Shown: positions 7,664 to 50,202 of the stretch, in pieces
Position numbering within the stretch: the stretch's first letter is position 1
Layout of the letters: each line of letters begins with the position of its first letter
DNA from: Eledone cirrhosa
Lineage: Eukaryota
DNA: 64,000 nucleotides
Direction: 5' to 3'
Assembly: GCA_964016885.1 (NCBI GenBank)
Contig: OZ024741.1
Span: 384,152,001 to 384,216,000, forward strand
The notes under the pieces: generated by a model
The model's database searches: none
Told to the model about the DNA's origin: nothing
What the model saw: the letters and a program-made list of their open reading frames with translations, nothing else
Made by a program: the position numbers and the translations under genes

Positions 7664-7733
7664 ATCAGCTGTATTGCGCAAACTCTCATCTTTACTTCCT
7701 GCTCTCTCACCACCAATACCTACACTCTCAAAA

Positions 7734-9530
7734 CACTACCCGCACTCTCACCACCACGACCCACACTCTCGTCACTACCCACGCTCTCATCACTACCCGC
7801 ACTCTGACCACCACGACCCACACTCTCGTCACTACCCACACTCTCATCACTACCCGCACTCTCACCACCACGACCCACACTCTCGTCACTACCCACATTC
7901 TCATCACTACCCTCACTCTCACCACCACGACCCACACTCTCGTCACTACCCACACTCACAGCACTACCCGCACTCTCACCACCACGACCCACACTCTCGT
8001 CACTACCTACACTATCATCACTACCCGCAATCTCACCACCACGACCCACACTCTCATCACTACCCACACTCTCATCACTACCCGCACTCTCACCACCACG
8101 ACCCACACTCTCGTCACTACCCACACTCTCATCACTACCCGCACTCTCACCACCACGACCCACACTCTCGTCACTACCCACACTCTCATCACTACCCGCA
8201 ATCTCACCACCACGACCCACACTCTCGTCACTACCTACACTCTCATCACTACCCGCACTCTCACCACCACGACTCACACTCTCGTCACTACCCACACTCT
8301 CATCACTACCCGCACTCTCACCACCACGACCCACACTCTCGTCACTACCCACACTCTCATCACTACCCGCACTCTCACCACCACGACTCACACTCTCGTC
8401 ACTACCCACGCTCTCATCACTACCCGCACTCTCACCACCACGACCCACACTCTCGTCACTACCCACACTCTCATCACTACCCGCACTCTCACCACCACGA
8501 CCCACACTCTCGTCACTACCCACATTCTCATCACTACCCTCACTCTCACCACCACGACCCACACTCTCGTCACTACCCACACTCACATCACTACCCGCAC
8601 TCTCACAACCACGACCCACACTCTCGTCACTACCTACACTATCATCACTACCCGCAATCTCACCACCACGACCGACACTCTCGTCACTACACACACTCTC
8701 ATCACTACCCGCACTCTCACCACTACGACCCACACTCTCGTCACTACCCACATTCTCATAACTACCCGCACTCTCACCACCACGACCCACACTCTCGTCA
8801 CTACCCACACTCTCATCACTACCCGCAATCTCACCACCACGACCCACACTCTCGTCACTACCTACACTCTCATCACTACCCGCACTCTCACCACCACGAC
8901 TCACACTCTCGTCACTACCCACATTCTCATAACTACCCGCACTCTCACCACCACGACCCACACTCTCGTCACTACCCACACTCTCATCACTACCCTCACT
9001 CTCACCACCACGACCCACACTCTCGTCACTACCCACACTCTCATCACTACCCGCACTCTCACCACCACGACCCACACTCTCGTCACTACCCACACTCTCA
9101 TCACTACCCGCACTCTCACCACCACGACCCACACTCTCGTCACTACCCACACTCTCATCACTACCCGCACTCTCACCACCACGACCCACACTCTCGTCAC
9201 TACCCACACTCTCATCACTACCCGCACTCTCACCACCACGACCCACACTCTCGTCACTACCTACACTCTCATCACTACCCGCACTCTCACCACCACGACC
9301 CACACTCTCGTCACTACCTACACTCTCATCACTACCCATAATCTCATTACTACTACCCACACTCTCGTCACTACCTACACTCTCATCACTACCCGCACTC
9401 TCACCACCACGACCCACACTCTCGTCACTACCTACACTCTCATCACTACCCATATTCTCATTACTACTACCCACACTCTCGTCACTACCTACACTCTCAT
9501 CACTACCCATACTCTCATTAATACTATCCA
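7734..9530. repeat. 57-bp minisatellite (18+21+18 subunits), about 30 units, decaying to about 9720
   Basis: Unit cactacccgcactctcac-caccacgacccacactctcgt-cactacccacactctcat. It produces the His-rich (+) and GSDESV (-) ORFs. Confidence 0.95.
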
Positions 9531-10772
9531 CACTCCCATCACTACTACCCCCACTCTAATCACTACTACCTACACCCTCAACATTACAACCCACACTACC
9601 TCTCTACTACCCACATTTACTACCTCCCACACATTCACTACTATTACCCACACTTTCATCTCTACTACTCACACTCACATTACAACTACCTGCACTCATA
9701 TGTCTACTACCCACATATGTCATCTTTACAGCCCCCTCTTTTTATACTTACTGGTCACTAGACTGGCACTTTGTTTATCGACCCTGAAAGAAGGAACACC
9801 AAAGTTAACCTCGGTGAGATTTTAGCTTAGAGCGTAGGAACCTGAAACAACCAAACTCTGCAAGTATTTATATCTAATGACTCTACCATTTTGTCGGCTA
9901 AAAATATAGCTTAATGAGGTTGTTTGCTTGCAAATGAATCGAATATTATTATTATTCGATATAAAAGTCACAAATATATTTACGTATCCGCTATGTTAGA
10001 GCGCAAAATGAAATTCTAATTTTGTTTTTAACTTTTATTTAATTGACCAAAACACTATGCTGCATCAACAGGAAAAATTGAAGGTTTAAAGTGAAGACCA
10101 TGGACACTGATGCTATCCTCACAGATGACAAGCCTATAATTGGACTAGTCGAGGGAGGATATATCAATACAAGAAATGGTATTGATGATGTAACAAACGA
10201 ATATATGCAATGCAGCAGGAAATTAAATAATTCCAAACCTTTAGTTGAAAGAACCAGAAACGAAATCCGAGCAGCTCACTGCTGATGAAACTATCGTAAT
10301 CTGCAAATTACTGAAGCAACAAGCCTCCAAAACTACAGGACTGTAATATGCTGTTCTACAGCTTACAAAACCTTAACTACAATAATATAACAGAGTATGA
10401 ATAACAACCAAGAAAAATTGATTTCGAATACACATGCAGTGGCAGTATAATCAACCATCTTTTGAATATGAAAGATATTTATTTATACGCTACAGTTGAT
10501 AAGCAACTAGAAACACTGCTCCAGGTAATACACTGATTTACGAGAGAAATTGATATAAAATTCGGGTTACAAATATGCACCAGGGAGAAAATTTATTTTA
10601 AATTATGATGACAATATTAATTAACTAGACAGAGTAAAACACAACATGTGGTTAGAATATCTCGAGAAAGAACCGCTCGACAGATTTTACGAACAAAACA
10701 AACCGGTAGGAGATCCAGAGTAGACCCCGAGCAAGATGGTTGGATAACAAATATGAGCTTGGCTGGTCTCCC

Positions 10773-30647: not shown

Positions 30648-32920
30648 TTAGATGCAAAATGTTTGGAATGTTTTACATATTTTTACTGTTCCATTAATGG
30701 ATTGTACTTGTAGTTTCCTAACTAGTCGTGTTCTTTCTGTTCCTGTGAAGCCTAGCTTCTCAAGATTTGTATTGAGGCAGTTACTAACATATCCCAGTGC
30801 CCCAATAATCACAGGCATAAATCTGAAGGTATAATCAGGGTGGAGTATCTGCAGATTTCTCATCAGTTCTGCATAAATATTCTCCTTTTCACTAATCTTT
30901 GATATTATATTGGCATCTGCTGGGCAGCTAATGTCCACTACTGTGCATGTTTTCTTCTCCCTGTCCCATATCATAATATCTGGTCTGTTATGCCTGCATT
31001 TTATTGGGGTTTTTACTGAAACATTCCACCAATACTCTTTCATATTATGTACATGGATGTCTTCCACATTGTGTTTATAATGTTTATTATCGGGGCTATC
31101 TTTTTTACGAACTGCATTGTACAGTGTTTTGGCCACTACATCATGCCTCATAGGTAGATAGTACCGCGATGACATCTTTGGGCAGCTGCTGATGACATGG
31201 TGATATCCTCGATGTTAGTTCTCCAGAGTCTGCACTTGTTATCACATCTAGGTGGTTTGCCTGCATCCCTATCTCTTTTGTGAATCAGGTATTTCGTACT
31301 AATCTCCTGTTCTTGGATTGCAAAAGCGTATCCTTCAAAGAGGAATCCAATATAGCGGTTCTTGGTCCAAGATAGATTACTTTCCTTATCTATATTACTC
31401 TCACTCTGGAGCTTCCTGGCAACATATCCATGCATGATTTTTTGCTGATAGGCATGCTGTTTTTCATCCATGGATTCACTGCGATACTGCTGAGCGACAT
31501 CGCTGGGTGTGAGTTTTTGATTATCACACAGGGAATATCTCTCAAGGAGTTCCTTCCCAACTCTCATGATCTTATCTGTTTCATGCAGATAGACTTGCTC
31601 GAGAAGCGGGCTCCTACGCTTCGAGATTCGTAGATGTTGTCGAAGAGATATGATGCGACATTCAAATGTTGTCTGGACTGATGTTAGGCCTCTGCCTCCC
31701 TGCTTACGTTTCAAGTAAAGGCGGTCTATGTCACTGTTGATGTGGAAGTCTCCGGTGTTGTTCAGTATTTTTCGAGTTCCAACATCAACTGCTCGGATTT
31801 CATCTATTGTCCAATTGAGTATTCCAAACGTTGGTGTTAGGACAGGCACAGCAAACACATTGTGAGCCACTGTTTTGATTTGCGCAGAGAGTTCCGATGA
31901 CCAGATCTTTCTTAATCGGGTGGAGTATTCACTGGTTACGCGTTCTTTATTACAGATACCATTATAGGATATGTTCTCTCTATCCCCAGGTATCTGTAGC
32001 AGTCCTCATCAGATATCGGTGAAACAGTTAGACCATTGATGATAATGTTGCTAGATTGGGTTGTTGTTTTTCCCCGCTTTACAGTCATGTATGAGCATTT
32101 ATCTTGGCCAAACTCCATTCCTATATCCTTTGAGAACGTTGTAACCAGGTCAAGATTTTTCTTCATCCCATCCATGTTCTTGGCATAGAGTTTCAGATCG
32201 TCCACAAAGAAGTTATGGGTTAGGTTCGTATTTCTGTCCTCCTGTGAGCCAATGATGTATCCCTCACATTTCTTGAGCAGAAAGGACAAGGGGTTTAATG
32301 ACAAGATGAACAATATCACAGAGAGACTGTCCCGCTGAAATATACCCCTGCAATATTTTATTTTATCAGTGATAATAGAGTCCTCCCTCTCTGTCTTAAA
32401 CCTTAGGATAGTAGCCCAAGAAGAAGACAGCCTCTTTATGGCTCTCACAATAATGTCTGGGACTTTTGCAAGTTGGAGGGCCTCTATCATCCAAGAGTGG
32501 GGAACAGAATCGAAAGCTTTCTCAGACTGTAGTCATATTCCTTCTAAGTTGTCGCACCTCTGACATCGTAGTTTTGTTGATTAGGAGTTGTTCAGCACAT
32601 CCCCAAACCCTTTTCTGTCCAGCTGCTTGTTCATCTGTGATGATGTTATTATTTTCACAGTGATCTTGGAGGAATAGGTTCAGGCAATCTGTATACATCT
32701 TATACATCAGGTTCTGGCATGCAATGGGTCGGTAGTTTTTTGTCAAGTGGGTGTCTTTGTTCTTCGGGACCAGTAACGTTTGTGCTAATGTCAACCATTC
32801 TGGTATAAGTGTATCTCCCTTAAGAACTTGTTGGTAGAGGTCAGTAAGATAACTCCGATAGAATATTAGTTTTTTGTACCAGTAGCCGACAATTATCTCT
32901 CTTCCTGGTGTTTTCTTATC
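30648..32920 (-). pseudogene. R4/Dong-clade LINE, 5'-truncated and frameshifted, in (CATA)n
   Basis: NYRPIAC, EQAAG, GIFQRDSLS, FFVDDLKLY, YRYLGI, GGRGL, RHD, RPDI, VVDISCP, VIIGALG. (TATG)n lies at both flanks. Confidence 0.88.
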
Positions 32921-32983
32921 TTGTATGTATGTATGTATGTATGTATGTATGTATGTATGTATGTATGTATGTATGTATGTATG

Positions 32984-33014
<31 letters not shown>

Positions 33015-33019
33015 GTATG

Positions 33020-33099
<80 letters not shown>

Positions 33100-33246
33100 A
33101 AAGAATAGAGGTGTAACACACAAGTTATTATATATTGGTAAACGGAATAGAAAATGCTGACAAATTGTTCACAGTGAAAAATAGTTTAATTAGGAATAAA
33201 TGAGAATTAGTAATTGTATTGGTTAGTATTCAATTTTGGTTTTAAG

Positions 33247-33550: not shown

Positions 33551-35687
33551 ATGAAGGAAGACATCACAGACTTCTGTAGAAAGTTACGACTCAGTGAACA
33601 ACTATTCGACCAGTACAATGAGGATGAATCATTAGCTAGAAATAGAAGCAATTACACCCCATCAAAAGGTAGAAATAAAATCCTGGACGAATTCTGTGAA
33701 CACATCACAAACTTCCTTTACCAACACTTGCACAGACAAAAACACAAGCCAAACCTCAACAAGAAAGAATGGGAAGAATTAAATAGATTAAAAACCGACA
33801 GAACCATTACAAGAGGCTGATAAAGGAAGTACAGTAGTCCTAATGGAATTCTATATCAACTTAGCGCTCTCCACTTTGGAAAACGAAACATACTACGAAA
33901 AGGCTGAACACTACAATCAACAGAAAATTATGAGAAACCTAAAAACTCTAATCAACCAATACAAAGACGGACTCACTAACAAGGAATTCAGCTTCATCAC
34001 AGACTTCACAAGTAAATCCAGCCTTTTCTACGGTATCCCTAAAGTACATAAAAGCGAATTAATAAGTAAGGCATGCAAGGAAGCCACAGACATAGTCATC
34101 AATGTCTCCTCACCCAATGATCTCAAATTAAGACCTATAATAGCAGGCCCCGCTTGCGAAACCCACAGCCTTAGCAACTTCATTGATACCTTTCTCAAGC
34201 CCTTTCTCAAACACATCAAAAGCTATATAAGGGACGACCTAGATATGCTCAATCACCTCCCTAATATGCCACTTTCTGAACAAATCCTACTAGTGACGTT
34301 CGATGTAGTCAACCTATACTCCAACATCCCCCTCAACCTAGGAATAGAAGCTATCCAATTCTGGCTGGATAATTACCACAATGAACTCCCACAACGCATC
34401 AAAAAAGAATTCGTGATAGAGTGACTCAAATTTATCTTGGAGAACAATTACTTCGTTTTCAATAACAAACCCTACAGGCAGAAATATGGGACCGCTATGG
34501 GAACGAAAACAACCCCCACTTATGCCAACCTAGTCATGGGATACCTGGAAATCATACTCTACACTAAATTCCTAAACACATTTGGAAACACTCTCCACTT
34601 ACACATAGAAAGGAACTGGAAGCGATATCTAGATGACTGCTTCATCCTTTGGCACGAAAACATCGAAAAACTTAAAGAATTTCACACCCTTATAAATGGG
34701 CTCAACACGAATATTAACTTCACGATGGAATACAGCCATCAACAACTCCCCTTCCTCGACATCCTCATTAAGATCCATAACAAAAAAATAGAAACAGACA
34801 TATACTACAAGCCCACAGACTCCAAGCAATATCTTCCTTTCAACTCTTGCCACGCTAGACACGTTAAAATTAATATTCCCTATAACTTAGCCAAGAGAAT
34901 CTGTACTATAGTCTCCAATAAAAACACCTGCTACCTACGGCTACAAGAACTAAAGGACACACTCATAGGCAGGGACTACCCTGCATCACTAATTGACAAT
35001 GGAATCCAACGTGCCCTAAAACTCAGTACCCAGGACCTTAGACACCCTAAAGTAAATCAACCGAAACTAAAAGCTCTTCCATACATCTCCACACACAACC
35101 CCCTCAACAATGAGGCCTTTGACACCATCCTCCAGAACATCCCTGTGTTGAAAAAGGACCATAGAATGAACCAAATCCTACGAACACACGATATCATAAA
35201 GTGCAAAAGACAATCTAAGTCAATGAAAAACATCCTAACACATGCCAAAGTACTGCCAACCACAACAACGAAACCCACAGTAAAAAAATGCGATAGACCC
35301 AACTGTGGCATTTGCATCAACCTAATAGAGGGTTCGGAATTCTATTTCAAAGAAGGACAACGTTTTATAGTAAAACACAATTTCACATGTGCATCGGAAA
35401 ATCTAATATATGTATTAACTTGCTCAGGTTGTCGAGAACAATACATAGGCCAGACCAAAATCAGCCTGCGCCAACGCATGACTGTCCATAGATCCCAAAT
35501 TAAAATACGGGAATACAGGAAAATACCTCTGAGTGAACACATTGATACCTGTGCCGCCCAACAGCATCCCAACTTCAGAATCTTTCCCCTCTACAAATTT
35601 AAAGATAATGCCACCCACACCCAGCGCATCAGCAAGGAATCTTACTTTATTAACAAATACGGACCCCGTCTAAACACTTCTCCCTAA
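33551..35687 (+). pseudogene. PLE RT plus GIY-YIG ORF with one frameshift (~33810) and one in-frame TGA (34422-34424)
   Basis: ADKGS, FYGIPKVHKS, RPIIAGP, FDVVNLY, GTAMGT, RYLDD, LPFLD, CDRPNCGIC, NLIYVLTCSGC..YIGQT, RMTVH, KE..FI...P.LN. Confidence 0.92.
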
Positions 35688-38463: not shown

Positions 38464-38789
38464 TAAAATAAAATATTAGTGTTTAAGCAAAGAATCGTTG
38501 TTTTCACCCTTAACAGGATCTTCGTAAAGGTTGAAAGCAGCGATTCTTTGCTTAAAATTTAATCTGTTATTTTAATAAATATTTGCTATGTGGTTTTATA
38601 TATTTTATATATATATTATCCTTATCGAGCCCTCTTCGGGTTTTAGTCTTCACCTTCATTATTATTACTATATATATATATATATATATATATCCAAAAT
38701 TAAATTAAGGGTTGTCATGTCTGAGAGACATGTGCCATATCCACTGCAGAATAAGCTCAAAGATTCCAATGAATAGATCCGACCATTTT

Positions 38790-39140
38790 ATATCAACTAG
38801 AAATAGATTGACATATATATATATAAAATAAACATATGAAACAATCACAGGGAATAATTTGTAAAGAATGTAAGCACACATAGCTAGGTAGGTAACTAAT
38901 TAAAATTTAGATACCTTTTAAAATGATTAATCTCCTTTGTATATATTTCTTTAAATAAAAAATATATTTCACCAATTAATCATTTTAAAAGGTATCTATA
39001 TTTGAAGTTCTAGTTAAACTTTAATTAGTTACCTACCTAGTTATGTGTGCTTACATTCTTTACATATTATTCCCTGTGATTGTTTCATATGTTTATTTTA
39101 TATATATATATATATATGTCAATCTATTTCTAGTTGATAT
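38790..39140. repeat. Fold-back (inverted repeat) element
   Basis: About 38790-38905 pairs with 39020-39140, and about 38908-38931 pairs with 38975-38998. Confidence 0.85.
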
Positions 39141-39257
39141 ATATATATATATATATGAATATAGACATAGAATATTCGAAAATATTCTGTATGTTTATAA
39201 TAAACATTTTGAAGACCTAATCGCTATAGAATAGAATACGTCACGTATTACAATTAG

Positions 39258-39346
39258 ATTCTCGATAAAAGCAAGGGAAGTAATCTACGCGTTTCATTCT
39301 TGTTAGAAATCATCAGGACTACATATCCAGTGCTTTTATCGAGAAT
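39258..39346 (-). ncRNA. Type I hammerhead ribozyme, left-arm copy (also at +310 steps up to 40808-40896)
   Basis: Reverse complement of 41148-41236. Confidence 0.88.
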
Positions 39347-41147
39347 GACACAGCTAGAGACTTATAGAATACTTAGCTGTGTACAGGAACTGGTTTGAAA
39401 GAGCGGTTGCCGGTCCGGCAGAAATTAGAAATTGGAATAAATGCTCTGAAATAGCGATATATATGTGAATATAGACATAGAATATTCGAAAATATTCTGT
39501 ATGTTTATAATAAACATTTTGAAGACCTAATCGCTATAGAATAGAATACGTCACGTATTACAATTAGATTCTCGATAAAAGCAAGGGAAGTAATCTACGC
39601 GTTTCATTCTTGTTAGAAATCATCAGGACTACATATCCAGTGCTTTTATCGAGAATGACACAGCTAGAGACTTATAGAATACTTAGCTGTGTACAGGAAC
39701 TGGTTTGAAAGAGCGGTTGCCGGTCCGGCAGAAATTAGAAATTGGAATAAATGCTCTGAAATAGCGATATATATGTGAATATAGACATAGAATATTCGAA
39801 AATATTCTGTATGTTTATAATAAACATTTTGAAGACCTAATCGCTATAGAATAGAATACGTCACGTATTACAATTAGATTCTCGATAAAAGCAAGGGAAG
39901 TAATCTACGCGTTTCATTCTTGTTAGAAATCATCAGGACTACATATCCAGTGCTTTTATCGAGAATGACACAGCTAGAGACTTATAGAATACTTAGCTGT
40001 GTACAGGAACTGGTTTGAAAGAGCGGTTGCCGGTCCGGCAGAAATTAGAAATTGGAATAAATGCTCTGAAATAGCGATATATATGTGAATATAGACATAG
40101 AATATTCGAAAATATTCTGTATGTTTATAATAAACATTTTGAAGACCTAATCGCTATAGAATAGAATACGTCACGTATTACAATTAGATTCTCGATAAAA
40201 GCAAGGGAAGTAATCTACGCGTTTCATTCTTGTTAGAAATCATCAGGACTACATATCCAGTGCTTTTATCGAGAATGACACAGCTAGAGACTTATAGAAT
40301 ACTTAGCTGTGTACAGGAACTGGTTTGAAAGAGCGGTTGCCGGTCCGGCAGAAATTAGAAATTGGAATAAATGCTCTGAAATAGCGATATATATGTGAAT
40401 ATAGACATAGAATATTCGAAAATATTCTGTATGTTTATAATAAACATTTTGAAGACCTAATCGCTATAGAATAGAATACGTCACGTATTACAATTAGATT
40501 CTCGATAAAAGCAAGGGAAGTAATCTACGCGTTTCATTCTTGTTAGAAATCATCAGGACTACATATCCAGTGCTTTTATCGAGAATGACACAGCTAGAGA
40601 CTTATAGAATACTTAGCTGTGTACAGGAACTGGTTTGAAAGAGCGGTTGCCGGTCCGGCAGAAATTAGAAATTGGAATAAATGCTCTGAAATAGCGATAT
40701 ATATGTGAATATAGACATAGAATATTCGAAAATATTCTGTATGTTTATAATAAACATTTTGAAGACCTAATCGCTATAGAATAGAATACGTCACGTATTA
40801 CAATTAGATTCTCGATAAAAGCAAGGGAAGTAATCTACGCGTTTCATTCTTGTTAGAAATCATCAGGACTACATATCCAGTGCTTTTATCGAGAATGACA
40901 CAGCTAGAGACTTATAGAATACTTAGCTGTGTACAGGAACTGGTTTGAAAGAGCGGTTGCCGGTCCGGCAGAAATTAGAAATTGGAATAAATGCTCTGAA
41001 ATAGCGATATATATGTGGTCTATATTCACATATATATCGCTATTTCAGAGCATTTATTCCAATTTCTAATTTCTGCCGGACCGGCAACCGCTCTTTCAAA
41101 CCAGTTCCTGTACACAGCTAAGTATTCTATAAGTCTCTAGCTGTGTC

Positions 41148-41236
41148 ATTCTCGATAAAAGCACTGGATATGTAGTCCTGATGATTTCTAACAAGAATGA
41201 AACGCGTAGATTACTTCCCTTGCTTTTATCGAGAAT
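41148..41236 (+). ncRNA. Type I hammerhead ribozyme, right-arm copy (also at +310 steps up to 43008-43096)
   Basis: attctcgataaaagca-ctggatat-gtagtc-CTGATGA-t-ttct/aaca/agaa-t-GAAA-cgcg-TA-gattac-ttccct-tgcttttatcgagaat. The predicted cleavage is after GUA at 41208. Confidence 0.9.
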
Positions 41237-43227
41237 CTAATTGTAATACGTGACGTATTCTATTCTATAGCGATTAGGTCTTCAAAATGTTTATTATAAA
41301 CATACAGAATATTTTCGAATATTCTATGTCTATATTCACATATATATCGCTATTTCAGAGCATTTATTCCAATTTCTAATTTCTGCCGGACCGGCAACCG
41401 CTCTTTCAAACCAGTTCCTGTACACAGCTAAGTATTCTATAAGTCTCTAGCTGTGTCATTCTCGATAAAAGCACTGGATATGTAGTCCTGATGATTTCTA
41501 ACAAGAATGAAACGCGTAGATTACTTCCCTTGCTTTTATCGAGAATCTAATTGTAATACGTGACGTATTCTATTCTATAGCGATTAGGTCTTCAAAATGT
41601 TTATTATAAACATACAGAATATTTTCGAATATTCTATGTCTATATTCACATATATATCGCTATTTCAGAGCATTTATTCCAATTTCTAATTTCTGCCGGA
41701 CCGGCAACCGCTCTTTCAAACCAGTTCCTGTACACAGCTAAGTATTCTATAAGTCTCTAGCTGTGTCATTCTCGATAAAAGCACTGGATATGTAGTCCTG
41801 ATGATTTCTAACAAGAATGAAACGCGTAGATTACTTCCCTTGCTTTTATCGAGAATCTAATTGTAATACGTGACGTATTCTATTCTATAGCGATTAGGTC
41901 TTCAAAATGTTTATTATAAACATACAGAATATTTTCGAATATTCTATGTCTATATTCACATATATATCGCTATTTCAGAGCATTTATTCCAATTTCTAAT
42001 TTCTGCCGGACCGGCAACCGCTCTTTCAAACCAGTTCCTGTACACAGCTAAGTATTCTATAAGTCTCTAGCTGTGTCATTCTCGATAAAAGCACTGGATA
42101 TGTAGTCCTGATGATTTCTAACAAGAATGAAACGCGTAGATTACTTCCCTTGCTTTTATCGAGAATCTAATTGTAATACGTGACGTATTCTATTCTATAG
42201 CGATTAGGTCTTCAAAATGTTTATTATAAACATACAGAATATTTTCGAATATTCCATGTCTATATTCACATATATATCGCTATTTCAGAGCATTTATTCC
42301 AATTTCTAATTTCTGCCGGACCGGCAACCGCTCTTTCAAACCAGTTCCTGTACACAGCTAAGTATTCTATAAGTCTCTAGCTGTGTCATTCTCGATAAAA
42401 GCACTGGATATGTAGTCCTGATGATTTCTAACAAGAATGAAACGCGTAGATTACTTCCCTTGCTTTTATCGAGAATCTAATTGTAATACGTGACGTATTC
42501 TATTCTATAGCGATTAGGTCTTCAAAATGTTTATTATAAACATACAGAATATTTTCGAATATTCTATGTCTATATTCACATATATATCGCTATTTCAGAG
42601 CATTTATTCCAATTTCTAATTTCTGCCGGACCGGCAACCGCTCTTTCAAACCAGTTCCTGTACACAGCTAAGTATTCTATAAGTCTCTAGCTGTGTCATT
42701 CTCGATAAAAGCACTGGATATGTAGTCCTGATGATTTCTAACAAGAATGAAACGCGTAGATTACTTCCCTTGCTTTTATCGAGAATCTAATTGTAATACG
42801 TGACGTATTCTATTCTATAGCGATTAGGTCTTGAAAATGTTTATTATAAACATACAGAATATTTTCGAATATTCTATGTCTATATTCACATATATATCGC
42901 TATTTCAGAGCATTTATTCCAATTTCTAATTTCTGCCGGACCGGCAACCGCTCTTTCAAACCAGTTCCTGTACACAGCTAAGTATTCTATAAGTCTCTAG
43001 CTGTGTCATTCTCGATAAAAGCACTGGATATGTAGTCCTGATGATTTCTAACAAGAATGAAACGCGTAGATTACTTCCCTTGCTTTTATCGAGAATCTAA
43101 TTGTAATACGTGACGTATTCTATTCTATAGCGATTAGGTCTTCAAAATGTTTATTATAAACATACAGAATATTTTCGAATATTCTATGTCTATATTCACA
43201 TATATATCGCTATTTCAGAGCATTTAT

Positions 43228-43268
<41 letters not shown>

Positions 43269-43482
43269 CGCCTTGAAATTCTTCTCCACCAACTGGAAGA
43301 ATTCTCTTCCCGTTTTCCCATTTGTATACCCCACCTCCTACCTCACCCCTTCCCACGTTTCCACCCTCACCCCCTTTAATCAACTTCATGAGATCTGCTC
43401 CTTAAAGTAGAGTACCCCACCACTATCCCCCCCTCCAACCACAAGAAAACCTATAAGTATCAATAACTCTCTATGTCAATCA

Positions 43483-43532
43483 GCATTCCTGATGATTTCA
43501 TACAAATGAAACAGTCCTAGCCCTGTAGAAGC
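43483..43532 (+). ncRNA. Type I hammerhead in a pLTR-like piece (43266-43622)
   Basis: gc(a)ttc-CTGATGA-tttcatacaaat-GAAA-cag/tcctagcc/ctg-TA-gaagc. Same family as 17330-17543. Confidence 0.7.
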
Positions 43533-43622
43533 CATTTCTATATGAAATAATGATTTCTACCCTCTACTAATATATTGAGTACCTTTTTTAATGTGGTACT
43601 CACGATTTCACTCGTGATCTCC

Positions 43623-43655
<33 letters not shown>

Positions 43656-43747
43656 CGTGTGTGTATACACATATATATCCTAACACAATATATATATTAT
43701 CTGTTATATGTATATAGAGAGAGAGGGGGGAGAGAGGGGGAGAGAGA

Positions 43748-43897
43748 GATAAATGGCTTCTACAGGACTAGAACTGTTTCCTTCGAATATGAATCAGTTC
43801 TAGTCATGAGGAGGCCATTTCTATATTAAATCTTGTATATACTCTATGTATTTAGTACCTTACTTACTGTGGTTACTCCCGATTGAACCCGGGACTC
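43748..43897 (+). mobile_element. Solo fold-back pLTR of the 17330/43483 HHR family
   Basis: aaatggcttctacaggactagaactgtttc...cagttctagtcatgaggaggccattt forms a palindrome, followed by gtaccttacttactgtgg...gattgaacccggga. Confidence 0.65.
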
Positions 43898-43915
43898 ACA
43901 CACACACACGCACAC

Positions 43916-44825: not shown

Positions 44826-47800
44826 CTACAGGCTTATAAACAGAGAAGGCCCAATCACTCGGGCCATTTTCGCTTCATTCACCCACCTTTCAGTAAATTT
44901 ACTGGGGTGCAGTGCCTCTCTCTCCACCCTGATTCTCCTTCTAAAGTGATACTTAAAGAATGGAATCAATTGTTGTCCGGAGAGAAAGGCATCTGTCCTC
45001 AGTCCTCTCAACCTCGTCCACCATATAACTTCTTTCACCATAGCCACCGTACAGAGGAAAACCGCCTCTCTTTCGTTTTTGAAAGAGTCTGGCGGTTTGA
45101 TTCTTACTATGGACTCGGCAGTCAACTGTATTTGTCCCATACGCGACAGCAGTTGTTCTGCATAGTTCCACAGGTCGCTTACGCCCGGGCAGTGTACAAT
45201 TGCGTGCAGAACTGTTTCAATGTCCTGCGCACATCTTGGACACGTCCTCTTGGAAGGATCCCTGCCAGGGCGTCCGTGCCTGTAGATCTTGTCACGAACC
45301 GGTAGAGCTCCTCGGTAGCACTGCCAGGCCAGGGACCTCTGGAAGTTGTCCATAGGTCCCGGGCGGAAAGTCCTACCAAACATACTGGTGAGCTCATCGT
45401 CTTCGACGCCCAGAGTCTCTCCGAGCACGTCGTCGCCCTTGTAACGTACAATCCCTCTATAGAATGTCGAAGTGGAGTCTCCACTGATTGCTGCGCCCGC
45501 TTGCCAGAGGACTGTGAGCGCCTGAGCGCATTCAATGTGCCAGGCGCCCATCGTTTTCGGTCTTTTCTTCACCCAGGACTGCAGCTCCGTTAGCGAGACG
45601 AGCTGTGGGAAAGCCTGTCTCATAAACGGTGCCCACACCGGTTGGGGGTCGGTGAGGAATACCTGGAGATGCCGCAGCCTCAGCGCATGTTTGCGCATCA
45701 TCAGCCACGGCATTCCCAGCCCTCCGTTGGAAGGGTGCTGACAGCAGACGGATCTCCTCACCAGCGGAGCCTGCTTCTTCCACAGAAACTGGAAGAGCAT
45801 GCGTTCCATCTTGGCGAGGTGTTCACGGGGACAAGGCACGACAGTCAAGCGGTAGTAGATGACGGACGCTATGAAAGTGTTCGCCACCTCCGCTCGACCT
45901 TTCAAGGACAGTTTGCACTCTGCCCACTTCTGAGTGAGTGCAAACACCTTGGCCGTGACCTCGTTCCAGTTTTTCTCCACCTGGAGGTCTGGACCGAACC
46001 AGACCCCGAGCAATTTCACCGGTCCGTCCGTCCAGCGTCCAACGACGCTGTCGGATGTCATCGGTTTGCCTCTCCACGTACCGAGTTGCAAACCGACAGA
46101 CTTGTCTGGGTTTAGTTTTGCTCCCGTCAGCGTTTCGTATTCTTTCAGTATGTTGCCGATCACCCCGATTTCCGAGGTGCTCGACACCATGACTGTCACG
46201 TCGTCGGCATAAGCCGACGCCGCTTTGCGCAGTCCCGGTTCTAGGGGGATGCCCTGCAACAGCTCCAATTTCCGCAGTAGTGGCTCTAGAGCCAATACAT
46301 ACAGAATGGAGGAGAGAGGGCATCCCTGTCGAATGGAACGCGTGATTGCGAACGGCTCCGATAGGTAGCCGTTCACCTTAACCCTCGAGCAGATGCTGGT
46401 GTGCATCGCCTCGATCCATCCTCTGAACACGGGACCGAAACCGGCCGCCTTGAGAACCGCTTCCAAGTATCGATGGTCGACCCTATCGAATGCCTTAGAC
46501 TGATCCAAGTTGATCAGAGTCCCACCGAAGCCGGGTTTACTACCCACCCTCTCTATGATGTATCGCATGAGGTGGAGGTTGTCGTGTATGGACCTGGTCG
46601 GGATTGCACACGTTTGCGCTTTCTCTACCAGGTTCTCGACGACAAGCGCCAACCTCGTCGCTAGCACCTTGGCCAAAATCTTTAACTCTGTGTTGAGCAG
46701 AGTTATGGGCCTGAAGTTGTTAATTTCGTCCCCCTTGTTCTCGTCTTTCCTGATCAGCGTTACTACGCCCTTGCCTGCAGAACTGGGAATTCTCCCGTTC
46801 TGCTGCCAATTGCAGTAGACGGCTTCGAGGATGCCAGAGAACAAGTCCGGCATGCCTATGTAAAATTCGTAGGGTAGACCATCTAGACCGGGTGACTTGC
46901 GTTTCCCGCAGCGGCCCAGAGCGTCCCGTATCTCAGTGTCCGTGATCGGTCTTTCGCAGAACTCGGCGTCCGTGTTCGAGAGACGCGGCAGGCCGTCGAG
47001 GTATGAACTAAAGTCCATTGCCCCGTTCGGCTCACCGTCGTTCTGCTCAAACAGTCGCGCAAAGTGCCGCTGAAAGGCCGCGCACATTTGCTTGGGGTCA
47101 AGTAGCATGCGTCCGTTTTGGTCTTTCAAAGACCGAATCGTGGACTTGTTGCCACTTTTTGCCTCCGCCACTCGGGCCCAGCTGACAGCTTTCGCTCCTT
47201 CGTTTCCTAGAGCACGTGTTTTGCTTCTGACCACGCAGCCTTCGTGTTTCGCATCGAAGAACTGGTCCAGTGCCGTTCTCGACGCTAACACTCTAGCCGC
47301 GTTGCCACTTCTAAGTGCCTCCTCTACCTTGGCTACTAGTTCTCTTTCTATTCTGTTTTTCTCTAAGGCTAACTCTCTGCTATACCCTATCGATTCTATT
47401 CTAATTGCTTTCTTGAGAGAGTACCACCATCTATTGTTGACGATGGCTCCCGTTAACTGTTGCTTGACTAGTTTACTTATCCGTTCACTGTAAGCTTTAC
47501 GTGCCGGCAACGACACGTTCAGCTTCCAGTATCCGGGACCCTGTCTATGTATTCTATCACGGTTGACTAAGCAGACGACTAACTTGTGATCTGAATAGGC
47601 AACCATGTGCATTCGTGGACAGCTTAACATATCCTTGTCCCTTTCTCTAATGAAGAACCTATCTAAATACGATCTAGATGTCCCACTGTGGTTTACCCAC
47701 GTCCACTGTGGTGCAGTCGGGAAATCCAGTCGATACCTATCGGCCAGTTGGAATTGGCCGATTAAAGTTTTGAGGCTGTTGCACCCCGCTCTACTGGGAC

Positions 47801-48272
47801 ATGCTCCCACATAGTCCCATCGTGCATCTAGGATACCATTCCAGTCCCCCACTAAAAGTAAGGAGCGAGACGTTCCCAGAAAAGACTCTAGACGCTTAAA
47901 GAAGTCTGGCCGTGATTGCGATTGCCCGGTCGGGGCATAAACGGCCACCAGTCTGAAGGCTCCACCTCCGATACTGTTCACGTCTAGGACTACCAGTCTA
48001 CCCTCCGGGTCCAAGTGTACTTGCTGTACTCCGACGTCCAGGTTCTTCCGAAACATAACAGCCACTCCACCTCCACCTCCTGGCTGACAGAGAGATGCGT
48101 AGATCTCAAAGTCGTCGAAGATGGGGGTTAGTTGCTGCCTGTTGTGGATTCTGGACTCGGTGATGGCTATCACATCCATACTGTGTGACCTAAGGTCGTT
48201 TAAAAGTTGGCCCTGTTTCCAGGGCATCCCTAGCCCACGCACATTCACGGTTCCAACTCGTAAACCAGCCAT
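44826..48272 (-). CDS. LINE ORF2: APE endonuclease, reverse transcriptase, C-terminal CCHC finger (1148 aa, intact)
   Basis: TVNVRGL, ITESR, VYAP, GDWNG, SYLD, YSDHK, YWKLN, KSPGLDGLP, FRPITLLN, LDQSKAFDRV, RQGCPLS, YADD, LLGVWF, CPRC..ETVLHAIVHC. Confidence 0.96.
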   Translation of the reverse strand: MAGLRVGTVNVRGLGMPWKQGQLLNDLRSHSMDVIAITESRIHNRQQLTPIFDDFEIYASLCQPGGGGGVAVMFRKNLDVGVQQVHLDPEGRLVVLDVNSIGGGAFRLVAVYAPTGQSQSRPDFFKRLESFLGTSRSLLLVGDWNGILDARWDYVGACPSRAGCNSLKTLIGQFQLADRYRLDFPTAPQWTWVNHSGTSRSYLDRFFIRERDKDMLSCPRMHMVAYSDHKLVVCLVNRDRIHRQGPGYWKLNVSLPARKAYSERISKLVKQQLTGAIVNNRWWYSLKKAIRIESIGYSRELALEKNRIERELVAKVEEALRSGNAARVLASRTALDQFFDAKHEGCVVRSKTRALGNEGAKAVSWARVAEAKSGNKSTIRSLKDQNGRMLLDPKQMCAAFQRHFARLFEQNDGEPNGAMDFSSYLDGLPRLSNTDAEFCERPITDTEIRDALGRCGKRKSPGLDGLPYEFYIGMPDLFSGILEAVYCNWQQNGRIPSSAGKGVVTLIRKDENKGDEINNFRPITLLNTELKILAKVLATRLALVVENLVEKAQTCAIPTRSIHDNLHLMRYIIERVGSKPGFGGTLINLDQSKAFDRVDHRYLEAVLKAAGFGPVFRGWIEAMHTSICSRVKVNGYLSEPFAITRSIRQGCPLSSILYVLALEPLLRKLELLQGIPLEPGLRKAASAYADDVTVMVSSTSEIGVIGNILKEYETLTGAKLNPDKSVGLQLGTWRGKPMTSDSVVGRWTDGPVKLLGVWFGPDLQVEKNWNEVTAKVFALTQKWAECKLSLKGRAEVANTFIASVIYYRLTVVPCPREHLAKMERMLFQFLWKKQAPLVRRSVCCQHPSNGGLGMPWLMMRKHALRLRHLQVFLTDPQPVWAPFMRQAFPQLVSLTELQSWVKKRPKTMGAWHIECAQALTVLWQAGAAISGDSTSTFYRGIVRYKGDDVLGETLGVEDDELTSMFGRTFRPGPMDNFQRSLAWQCYRGALPVRDKIYRHGRPGRDPSKRTCPRCAQDIETVLHAIVHCPGVSDLWNYAEQLLSRMGQIQLTAESIVRIKPPDSFKNEREAVFLCTVAMVKEVIWWTRLRGLRTDAFLSGQQLIPFFKYHFRRRIRVEREALHPSKFTERWVNEAKMARVIGPSLFISL

Positions 48273-48313
48273 GTTGGTGAAGAAAAGTTGGAGAAAAAGG
48301 ACGAAAGGTGCAC

Positions 48314-50202
48314 TTACCTTTTCGTTTCCTGGAGATCGGGTTGTTCAATCTCCATTTGGGTGCTGGATGGGGTGTTGGGTGGGGTGGGGAAACCTTTCAA
48401 CAGGACGCGGTTGATGGGTTTGTGGCAGGGGTTGCCCACGTCCTGTGAAAATTTAATTTTCAGGTCCTTATAGGTTTCCATAGTAACCCTTATAAGTTTA
48501 AGGTGTGGAGACGATTCTGCCTTGACGAAAGTTTTGCCCTCCGTCTCCACCTTGGGGTTTTGGGAGATGACCTCCATCAAACTCTTGTTGTTTGTGTTGA
48601 TGTATGCGTATTGTTGTTTGTGTTCTTGTTGTATTGTTTTAGTTTGTTGTTCATCTGGGAGTTTTCTTTTTATGGTGGGTGCTTGTGTTTGGGGTGGTGT
48701 TGGTGCTGGTTTTGCTGATAGGGGGGTGTTTGACTGTGGTGTTGTTTGTGTTGTTGTTTGTGTCTGTGGTTGTGTATTGGTGTTGGTGATTGGAGTTTTG
48801 GGGGTTTTGTGGTGTCTCTTTTTTTGTTTTTTGGATTTCCGCGGTTCTCCCTCTTCTTCACTTAAAGAAGGAGAAGCAGCTTCATCCGTCGATGAATAAT
48901 CATCGTCAGGTGTGTGGGGTAAGGGTATGTTGTGTGGTGGTGGTGGTGTTTCGGTATGTGTGTTTGTGGTAGTGTTTGATGGAGTGGGATGGAGTGGGGG
49001 TGTGTTCTTCAGGGGTGTTGTCTCTGTTTTTTCTGTTGTTGTTGGTTGAGTGTCTGTTTGTTTTGGTGTGGTTGCTCGTTTCGTCTGTCGTTGTACTTGT
49101 GGTGGTGGTGGTGGTGGTGGTTGTTTTGGTGTTGGTGTTGGTAATAGCGTTTTTTTTATGATGTTGCTGTTGTGTGTTTGTGGACAAGAGGCTTTTAGGT
49201 GAGATGTGCTACCACAGCGAAAGCAGTGAAATTTTCTTCCTTCTACCGAAATGTTTATTTTGTTGTTATTATCAATAACGACTCTTTCGGGTATTTTGGA
49301 GATTCTCTCCGGTTTCATTTGCAACAGAATCTCCAAATCGGTGCCCGCCCACCTTTGTCGAATGGATTTTCGTATCGAAAGTATTATGTCTGTTTCTGGC
49401 TCTACGAAGCCAGCCAAGATCCACCAGATGTTAATGCTTGGAGGTATGTTTTTTATTTTTATTTTTTGTGTCCTTTTCCCCATGTATGTAGGGAAAAAGG
49501 TGTATGCTTTTGACACTATTGGTGTCACAGAGTTTTTTTGGGCCAGTGTCTCGCTTTTAAACAGTACGGAAACGCTTCCGTACTGTTTTCCTCGCTGGAG
49601 AAAATCGACATTTGCTAGAATCTCCTTGAAAGAATCTTCTATATCTGACTGATTAACAAATGTCGGTTTTCTTGACGAATTTGACACAGTCCTAAAAGTG
49701 ACTGATCGGCGGTTTGTGTCTTCCTTTATTTCAAGGGGTGAGTTAATTCTAAACCCACCTCTTTCTTCGAAAGTTACAAATTTTCTCCCTTGCTGGAGCA
49801 TATCTCTTGCGTTGGAGATATCAAGATTTATAAAATCTTGTTTCTTGTTGACTGTGTCAGCAAAAGACATTTTCTTTTTTTGTGTGATGTTGTTGTTGAT
49901 AATGATGATGTTATCGTTGTTGGAAATTTTATGTGTAGATGTATCCGTAGAGTTGTTGATGTCTTTTTCATGTGTATGTATGTCAATGGGTTTTTTTGCC
50001 GTGTTTTCCCGTGTGTTATTGTCATTTTTCTCCGCTTCGGCGGTAGAAATTGTAACATTTTCAAATGTTGATATATTTTTTTTTCTTTTGTGACAGTATC
50101 TATGGCAACGTCCATAGCAGCAGAAGCAGATATAACGTTAATATCTGCCTCTTTCTCTCTCTTTTCACTATTAACGTTCTCCAGCGTTCTAGTGTTGCTC
50201 AA
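48314..50202 (-). CDS. LINE ORF1, gag-like with zinc knuckle. The main frame is 48314..49870 and there is a probable homopolymer frameshift near 50080
   Basis: CFRCGSTSHLKASC and a Pro/Thr-rich linker. Homologous to ORF1 at 24181..25698. Confidence 0.8.

Follow-up and report, generated by a model that had tools for sequence, protein, structure and literature searches.

We report that an array of 310-nucleotide (nt) units in the genome of Eledone cirrhosa represents a single insertion, composed of two mirror-image tandem arms, of a retrozyme family that is young and encodes no protein. It lies in a stretch of 64,000 nt (GenBank assembly GCA_964016885.1, contig OZ024741.1, positions 384,152,001 to 384,216,000 of the forward strand), referred to below as the window. 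The inverted two-arm layout, overlooked in the original prediction made for this DNA, is the most informative feature of the locus. We propose that the 310-mers are a young family of retrozymes without long terminal repeats (non-LTR retrozymes), very probably mobilised by the enzyme of a Penelope-like element (PLE), and we favour, with more reserve, two-ended rolling-circle reverse transcription by such an enzyme as the process that made the arrays.

The original prediction had described 13 near-identical, non-coding monomers that form an exact 310-bp tandem repeat. Much of this description stands: the 310-bp period was found again, a hammerhead motif is present in 13 of 13 units, the 11 units that are complete from predicted cut to predicted cut comprise nine identical copies and two with one substitution each, and no open reading frame (ORF) of 120 amino acids (aa) or more is present in 39157-43233. 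It was the single orientation that had to be given up, as the window contains two opposed arms meeting head-to-head, with six units on the minus strand and seven on the plus strand (Table 1), which Tandem Repeats Finder reports as 6.0 copies in 39147-41017 and 7.1 copies in 41018-43233. The array lacks the ORF with reverse transcriptase and GIY-YIG endonuclease that characterizes autonomous PLEs, and is therefore non-autonomous. The two arms also end differently, and the "tail" that distinguishes their ends would correspond to the interval between two start sites of reverse transcription.

Table 1. Features of the 310-mer locus and of related elements. Coordinates are those of the window unless a sampled locus (L) is named; monomer positions are numbered from the predicted cut.
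Feature	Position	Strand	Remarks
Arm B	39156..41017	-	6.0 tandem units, 6 hammerheads; exact extension
Arm B 3' end	monomer position 130 (139 allowing one mismatch, to 39147)	-	tail-less end
Arm A	41018..43233	+	7 hammerheads in 7.15 tandem units; tailed 3' end, at monomer position 165
Head-to-head junction	41017..41018		both arms 5'-truncated, at monomer positions 129 and 120; blunt
Reference monomer	41209..41518	+	predicted cut to predicted cut, 310 nt, 34% G+C
Tail	43199..43233	+	26-35 nt that arm A has at its end and arm B lacks
Left (TA)n target tract	39137..39155		from sequence
Right (TA)n target tract	43234..43265		from sequence
Type I hammerhead, first plus unit	41172..41214	+	from sequence; predicted cut after 41208
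Stem I	41172-41177/41209-41214	+	GUAGUC/GAUUAC, first plus-unit hammerhead
CUGAUGA box	41178-41184	+	first plus-unit hammerhead
Stem II	41185-41198	+	U-U at base, loop AACA
GAAA box	41199-41202	+	first plus-unit hammerhead
Palindromic CGCG	41203-41206	+	stem III loop
UA before predicted cut	41207-41208	+	first plus-unit hammerhead
16-bp distal helix	41148-41163 with 41221-41236	+	prolongs stem I beyond 8x6 internal loop
PLE family 1 copy	33792-35687, 3' region to ~36880	+	broken by one stop; long apparently coding stretch upstream of main frame
Hydra-type PLE	L153:4465-6738, contig C1 near 14.21 Mb	-	intact 713-aa ORF, hammerhead in terminal repeat
Second retrozyme family, ~466 nt	L144:5332-9568, L147, L088, L091, L159		stem III ACUAGU; inverted arms end at 228 and ~299 in (TA)n
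Third retrozyme family, ~485-500 nt	L047:1427-5049, L053, L168, L057, L142		inverted layout and octamer likewise

The same footprint is found at other loci. These were sampled as 12 stretches picked by the ribozyme, the first 60 further tail ends on one contig (C1) and 20 short ends without a strict tail match nearby; all of them except the window lie on contig C1, and a locus cut by a gap (L033), a one-armed locus (L037) and a cut-off locus (L041) were left out. Every two-armed locus picked by the ribozyme, including the window, has one 130/139 end and one 165/167 end (10/10). An inverted arm is present in 53 of the 60 tail-selected loci (four are one-armed and three undecidable), and by alignment 51 of these 53 inverted arms terminate at 138/139, or at 125-139 when exact matching is used, with two cut off and none ending at 165. 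Among the 20 short-end loci, 11 have an inverted arm, which ends at 166-172 and never at 139, and none was detected in the other nine. No sampled locus has like ends on both arms: one arm ends at 165-172 and the other at about 130-139, and the two fixed 3' ends are about 26-40 nt apart. Both ends sit in (TA)n, also at loci picked by the ribozyme alone, so that this is not merely a product of the selection pattern. Any target-site duplication, which in non-LTR retrozymes exceeds 4 bp when present, would be masked by the (TA)n at both ends, and the locus L085 lies inside a (TA)n tract of normal length. The 5' ends of the arms are scattered, with varying phases and many arms shorter than two units, and among 63 junctions there are 32 with an overlap of 1-8 nt, 17 with additional bases, 7 without either and thus blunt, and 7 with longer overlaps, which the internal helix produces in part as artefacts of alignment. 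At position 139 the RNA reads AUAUAUAU and is able to pair with the target, while at 165-172 only 1-3 nt match it.

Palindromes are a known artefact of long-read sequencing, and the inversion might in principle have arisen as a fold-back during sequencing or assembly. The junction 41017/41018 is bridged by no listed contig of three short-read sequencing runs, a hole that proves nothing either way. However, the 74 two-armed loci have different fixed ends, unequal lengths and distinct unique flanks, and the PLEs and two other retrozyme families of this genome show the inverted layout as well, each with its own pair of ends, which makes an artefact extremely improbable. Three further runs, of unspecified kind, each contain one closed-loop contig of 340 nt (310 + 30) at a depth of 10-15; tandem DNA and an RNA circle would loop alike, and nothing is concluded from these contigs. 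Of the runs that match the stretch, six in all, none is listed as RNA.

What the sampled loci share is known from PLEs. An adjacent inverted, 5'-truncated copy, a tail of 30-40 bp at one end and a bias towards (TA)n are hallmarks of PLE insertions, and (TA)n targets are typical of the Hydra, Neptune and Naiad PLEs (PMC8557442). For PAc, the anole element, the purified PLE protein was shown to nick AT-rich DNA and to extend both strands, with synthesis beginning at two internal RNA sites on either side of the tail (PMC11167929). The 310-mer insertions have the inverted 5'-truncated copy at the 5' end, the tail at one end only and the (TA)n target, with a tail that falls slightly under the 30-40-bp range if counted from 139. 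It is this close match that leads us to hold mobilisation by a PLE to be very probable, and the dependence on PLE enzymes suggested in the original prediction thereby gains direct support from the insertion footprint at the sampled loci.

The family is large and young. Searches of the 3.0-Gb genome with sequence patterns gave 4,177 exact matches to the 43-nt ribozyme of the window haplotype and 19,077 matches to the ribozyme end (a 16-nt part common to the main haplotypes), with none for control patterns read backwards; by simple arithmetic from the latter count, about 19,000 units would occupy about 6 Mb, or about 0.2% of the genome. The end at position 165/167 followed by TA has at least 1,301 matches and the end at 130/139 at least 1,408, both counts being lower bounds. 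The genome totals of the two end types are thus alike, and the layout recurs at about 1,300-1,400 or more loci. Single-unit divergence is about 0.04%, so the family is very young. These units form 310-bp tandems with the type I motif in each of the 13 copies of the window, are non-coding, have 34% G+C, below the 50% bound of the class, and are dispersed, as is characteristic of non-LTR retrozymes; by the ribozyme ends, the stereotyped termini, the low divergence and the selection on the ribozyme described below, this is a recently active retrozyme rather than an ordinary satellite, as had been suspected. A simple motif search of the 310-mer returned neither an octamer nor a B-box.

The ribozyme itself deserves a closer look. 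Stem I, the 8x6 internal loop and the 16-bp distal helix of the earlier description were all found again in the sequence and by folding, and the predicted cuts after 41208, 41518 and so on to 43068 were recovered from the motif. The core, previously called canonical, has the CUGAUGA, GAAA and UA elements but is not fully canonical, as stem II consists of four pairs on a basal U-U mismatch and stem III is a single A-U pair closing the CGCG loop. The Rfam scan that had been suggested gave no confirmation: nothing in the window reached the gathering threshold, and the best hammerhead match, to Hammerhead_HH9, stayed below it (19.2 bits, E 0.25, cut-off 52). We identify the motif as a hammerhead because of covariation across three families of this genome. 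Two further tandem families (466 nt and ~485-500 nt) align to the 310-mer ribozyme without internal gaps, and in the alignment of the three, with 15 distinct rows, 93% of the cells are paired and 10 of 14 pairs are compensatory, compared with at most 51% of cells paired in slid controls; as the three families are related, the shuffle counts are not probabilities. Even the palindrome of stem III differs between families (ACGCGU vs ACUAGU). The predicted fold of the monomer beats 100 of 100 shuffles (z -4.4). The sequence ACGCGU is self-complementary, and folding assigns -7.5 kcal/mol to its duplex, whereas the monomeric hairpin with a 1-bp stem III costs about 5 kcal/mol; since this stem is so weak, cleavage is predicted to occur as a dimer, and transcripts of the 310-mer would be expected to cleave themselves in this manner.

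Selection maintains the ribozyme fold in the 310-mer family. Among 80 loci picked without regard to the ribozyme, fixed substitutions at structured ribozyme positions kept the pairing in eight cases and broke it in one, and none hit the invariant core; single-unit substitutions at such positions broke pairs or core in 18 cases and kept them in two (Fisher p 9e-5). The share of damaging changes overall is 1/29 among fixed and 18/80 among single-unit substitutions (p 0.02); of 111 single-unit substitutions, 31 that lay in clusters of three or more within 15 nt had been set aside as junction artefacts. The only fixed changes within the core are at the free position 7, and a fixed U-to-A change that closes the U-U mismatch of stem II is present in 14 sampled loci. 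As fixed variants retain the pairing that single-unit ones break, it is the transposing copies that keep the ribozyme fold, which lends indirect support to the predicted self-cleavage of the transcript. In 90 sampled loci, fixed variants are also rich in sense-strand A-to-G changes (10/29, compared with 6/95 single-unit variants, p 0.0004; p 0.06 against T-to-C). Six of the ten fit the tolerance of helices for G-U pairs, and the excess, which is suggestive only, may reflect this tolerance or editing of the RNA template.

A small, structured, non-coding and ribozyme-bearing RNA could also be imagined as a viroid-like replicon, copied from RNA to RNA and only now and then reverse-transcribed into the genome. 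Avsunviroid-like replicons carry hammerheads in both polarities and have no DNA phase. The 310-mer has its motif on the sense strand of each arm only, with no hammerhead motif on the antisense strand of either arm, and its copies are genomic DNA insertions; measured against defining features drawn partly from PMC7761336, it does not belong to this group. RNA-to-RNA replication has been raised as a possibility for mussel retrozymes (PMC7229834). However, the predicted fold of the 310-mer is branched and not rod-like, the diversity of the family is low, with few haplotypes, and over a thousand DNA loci are able to supply the RNA. We therefore regard replication from RNA to RNA, as implied by the earlier term "viroid-like", as highly improbable.

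The nature of the template can be judged from the distribution of variants among units. Both arms share a haplotype in 64 of 66 loci, compared with a proportion of about 0.24 expected by chance. In the 75 loci with at least four units, 100 substitutions are fixed in all units, 125 are confined to a single unit and only 14, in 9 of the loci, are intermediate. Variants are thus for the most part either common to all units or private to a single one, the pattern that repeated copying of one monomer per insertion would produce. It is also telling that 15 variants are fixed on both arms and yet occur in one sampled locus each, where a monomer template would give about 8 newly fixed variants if the source was as mutated as today's loci. 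The predicted cut site carries no scar, with no single-unit indels at 756 crossings and 42 such indels elsewhere, and only 2 of 164 5' ends lie within 5 nt of it (5.3 expected). A covalent circle read many times fits the data on haplotypes, variants and cut sites, and is probably what served as the template.

The last two observations bear directly on a related scheme, in which a linear monomer released by cleavage serves as template and, at each round, the reverse transcriptase passes from the 5' end to the 3' end, either of that monomer or of another. A single haplotype per locus is explained no less well by this scheme than by a circle, and the locus L065 suggests template switching between haplotypes; however, the lack of an excess of 5' ends at the cut site and the unscarred crossings make it very unlikely. 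Another possibility, proposed for growth after PLE insertion in a recent preprint (bioRxiv 10.64898/2026.07.22.740005), is that a short PLE-type insertion only seeds the locus, and that the arms then lengthen locally through unequal exchange or slippage, in the manner of a minisatellite. Variants occupy irregular subsets of units in the longest arrays (L035, L036, L052 and L077), and one array reaches about 15 kb between its ends, as this scheme would allow. On the other hand, 14 of 239 substitutions are of intermediate frequency; the very young locus of the window already has 6 + 7 units with two differences in total; the arms start at scattered phases, and many have fewer than two units; and both arms would have to grow independently at over a thousand loci. 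We consider growth in place an improbable origin of the arrays. The array of about 15 kb (L077, contig C1, 97461504-97476483) comprises about 48 units, among which linked variants are irregularly spread.

As for the source of the enzyme, two PLE families with intact frames were examined in the genome. The first has a 784-aa frame with a GIY-YIG domain, is abundant, and shows a CxxC-type linker and a tandem period of 4,734 bp; apart from the copy in the window, it occurs at L133-L134. It was considered as the carrier of a related ribozyme and rejected, since its 4,734-bp period contains no hammerhead, and the ribozymes near it belong to a separate element inserted beside its ends. The second family, with a 713-aa frame, was at one point taken for Poseidon-like, an assignment that was rejected as its motifs (RWR, DKT, CxCX5C and CxxC/CxH, judged by eye) fit the Hydra clade, which targets (TA)n. 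Its ribozyme end has 14,713 matches in the genome. The element occurs mostly in short (TA)n-bounded inverted pairs, which end 22 and 89 nt past the cut site, and it has the core and stem II in common with the 310-mer (25 of 28 aligned columns). The tail of this Hydra-type PLE is nearer to those of the 466- and 490-nt retrozyme families (about 70 and 60 nt) than to that of the 310-mer. The 466-nt family carries the octamer ATGCAAAT, presumably a promoter element of the small nuclear RNA type. The third family holds an internal (TA)n that is itself a target, as a 310-mer array sits inside it at L085. Alignments of the 310-mer body with the 466-nt and 484-nt families are not significant (p 0.12 and 0.08), nor is that of the long ends of the 466-nt family and the 310-mer.

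Several observations weigh against copying of circles by a PLE enzyme as we propose it. Beyond the ribozyme, the 310-mer does not significantly resemble the pseudo-long terminal repeat (pLTR) of the Hydra-type PLE (shuffle p 0.42), and the tail of that element is about 67 nt long compared with about 30 nt in the 310-mer; because of the tail length and the restricted likeness, we assign no partner among the two PLE families examined. We infer transcription of the arrays, cleavage by the hammerhead and the formation of circles from sequence, the monomeric ribozyme is weak by the cost of its 1-bp stem III, and 8 of 9 frog retrozyme dimers failed to cleave in vitro (bioRxiv 10.64898/2026.07.22.740005). 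Ribozyme cleavage is dispensable for the anole PLE, whose preferred RNA is the unprocessed form (PMC11167929). The locus sample is confined to contig C1, the window excepted, and the arms of L065 differ. Irregular variant subsets in the four long arrays mean that exchange at the DNA level occurs. Finally, at three loci (L071, L092 and L188) a minority variant occupies the same unit in each of the two arms, and in L092 two units of one haplotype are followed by another haplotype on both arms, which points to a multimeric template.

The most direct alternative, accordingly, is a two-ended PLE insertion from an uncut linear multimeric transcript, with both primers in one unit and a few young masters providing the uniformity. 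Beyond the three loci with variants in the same register and the weakness of the ribozyme, it is in keeping with the correlation of arm lengths (rho 0.32, p 0.005, 74 two-armed loci), with unprocessed RNA as the main substrate of the anole enzyme (PMC11167929) and with the existence of multimeric RNAs in the axolotl (PMC7229834). A multimer would, however, lead one to expect about 26 variants shared in the same register, a figure that, like the one for newly fixed variants, assumes sources as mutated as today's loci and would, as would the other, be lowered by a few very young masters; what is seen is 6 shared sites in 3 of 74 two-armed loci, and 77 unshared ones. It also offers no route to the 15 locus-private variants fixed in all units of both arms, 5' truncation would shorten the arrays in every generation, and selection on the ribozyme is left unexplained. 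We regard uncut multimers as an unlikely general template, and retain the circle.

The class to which the 310-mer belongs is already known, and it is the inverted insertion layout that we have not found described for it. Metazoan non-LTR retrozymes are likewise low-G+C, non-coding tandems of a few hundred bases with one type I hammerhead per unit (PMC7229834; bioRxiv 10.64898/2026.07.22.740005), with a unit range of about 150-450 bp, dispersal in thousands of copies and a proposed use of PLE enzymes (PMC7229834). These texts describe retrozymes as head-to-tail tandems, whereas the 310-mer loci are nearly all head-to-head pairs of arrays whose two fixed ends lie in (TA)n. The word "inverted" does not occur in the main text of PMC7229834 and occurs once, in the title of a reference, in that of bioRxiv 10.64898/2026.07.22.740005, where "tail" is absent; inverted arms or tails of retrozymes appear neither in these two main texts nor in the passages considered from PMC7761336. 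No cephalopod is treated in either main text, and in the literature, mainly openly accessible, we found no paper on the 310-mer family or on an inverted layout in retrozymes. PLE-driven copying of circles into tandem complementary DNA (cDNA) is hypothesised in PMC7229834, while the preprint, in which frog retrozymes are linked to pLTRs by phylogeny and no mollusc is sampled, states that the mechanism remains to be worked out (bioRxiv 10.64898/2026.07.22.740005). Expression and circles have been demonstrated for retrozymes of coral, mussel and axolotl (PMC7229834), whereas the 310-mer is known here from DNA.

With respect to the ribozyme, the closest counterparts are found in the axolotl, where HHR_Amex1 has a one-base-pair stem III with a palindromic tetraloop and HHR_Amex2 a U-U mismatch at the base of stem II, and for both, cleavage is poor in the monomer and improves in the dimer (PMC7229834). 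The 310-mer motif combines both of these weak features; its likeness to the axolotl and newt satellite 2 motifs is drawn here from structure. With PLE insertion units (Hydra clade, PMC8557442; anole PAc, PMC11167929) the 310-mer shares the inverted 5'-truncated copy, the tail at one end, (TA)n and a ribozyme upstream of the ends. It differs from them in lacking reverse transcriptase and endonuclease and in having multi-unit arrays as both arms, and its likeness to the pLTR of the Hydra-type element of its own genome does not extend beyond the ribozyme. The non-autonomous Chlamys elements, MRC1 among them, also depend on PLEs and are often inserted as multicopy head-to-tail arrays; most Chlamys elements, however, have no canonical hammerheads, and the non-autonomous ones resemble their autonomous partners at the 3' end and reside in an algal host (PMC8557442).

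Taken together, these data suggest the following scenario. Tandem 310-mer arrays would be transcribed, the hammerheads would cleave, probably pairwise via the ACGCGU palindrome, and the 310-nt monomers would be ligated into RNA circles. A PLE reverse transcriptase/endonuclease would cleave a (TA)n tract on both strands, and the protein, as a dimer, may prime both at 139, aided by pairing of AUAUAUAU with the target, and at 165-172, with an AT match of 1-3 nt. From each cut end the circle would be copied round and round, until the two antisense cDNAs dissociate at random points; joining through short microhomology and fill-in would follow. Uncut multimers would probably serve as template in a minority of insertions, and long arrays would afterwards be reshuffled at the DNA level. 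The full proposition, that each of over 1,300 loci preserves the outcome of a dimeric PLE-type enzyme priming twice, about 30 nt apart, on one ribozyme-made circle, is one that we hold to be evenly balanced.

The surroundings of the array in the window are rich in other mobile elements. At 43266-43625 (plus strand) there is a different type I hammerhead, with CUGAUGA at 43489 and a 4-bp stem III, ending in (TA)n; this segment resembles a terminal-repeat fragment of a PLE akin to the Hydra-type element, and a related inverted piece lies at about 43746-43900 (minus strand). Directly to the left of the array, at 38770-39140 and 38470-38600, lie a pair of small fold-back elements with (TA)n at their borders; they are probably remnants of further insertions of the PLE type, and (TA)n tracts act as nesting hot spots. 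Further away are an apparently intact long interspersed nuclear element with two ORFs (44826-50137, minus strand; a 607-aa ORF1 and a 1,172-aa ORF2 with endonuclease, reverse transcriptase and zinc-binding domains), a fragmented non-LTR retrotransposon with a reverse transcriptase and a likely C-terminal restriction-like endonuclease (30648-33124, minus strand), and a 57-bp tandem array of 32 copies with 94% matches, strongly C-rich on one strand (7717-9566).

The 310-mer family ties retrozymes to the PLE insertion reaction by a footprint rather than by mere co-occurrence. Being young, it discriminates between the copying of circles and local amplification by sequence alone, and it bears on the origin of the inverted ends of PLEs. 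If the proposed mechanism is true, the family would constitute the first population-scale record of retrozyme arrays written in one step from circles, the inverted ends and tails of PLEs would come from double priming, and a defined 310-nt substrate and an intact candidate enzyme would be available within one genome. For the animal itself, about 19,000 units arranged in kilobase palindromes would yield long double-stranded RNA or unstable DNA.

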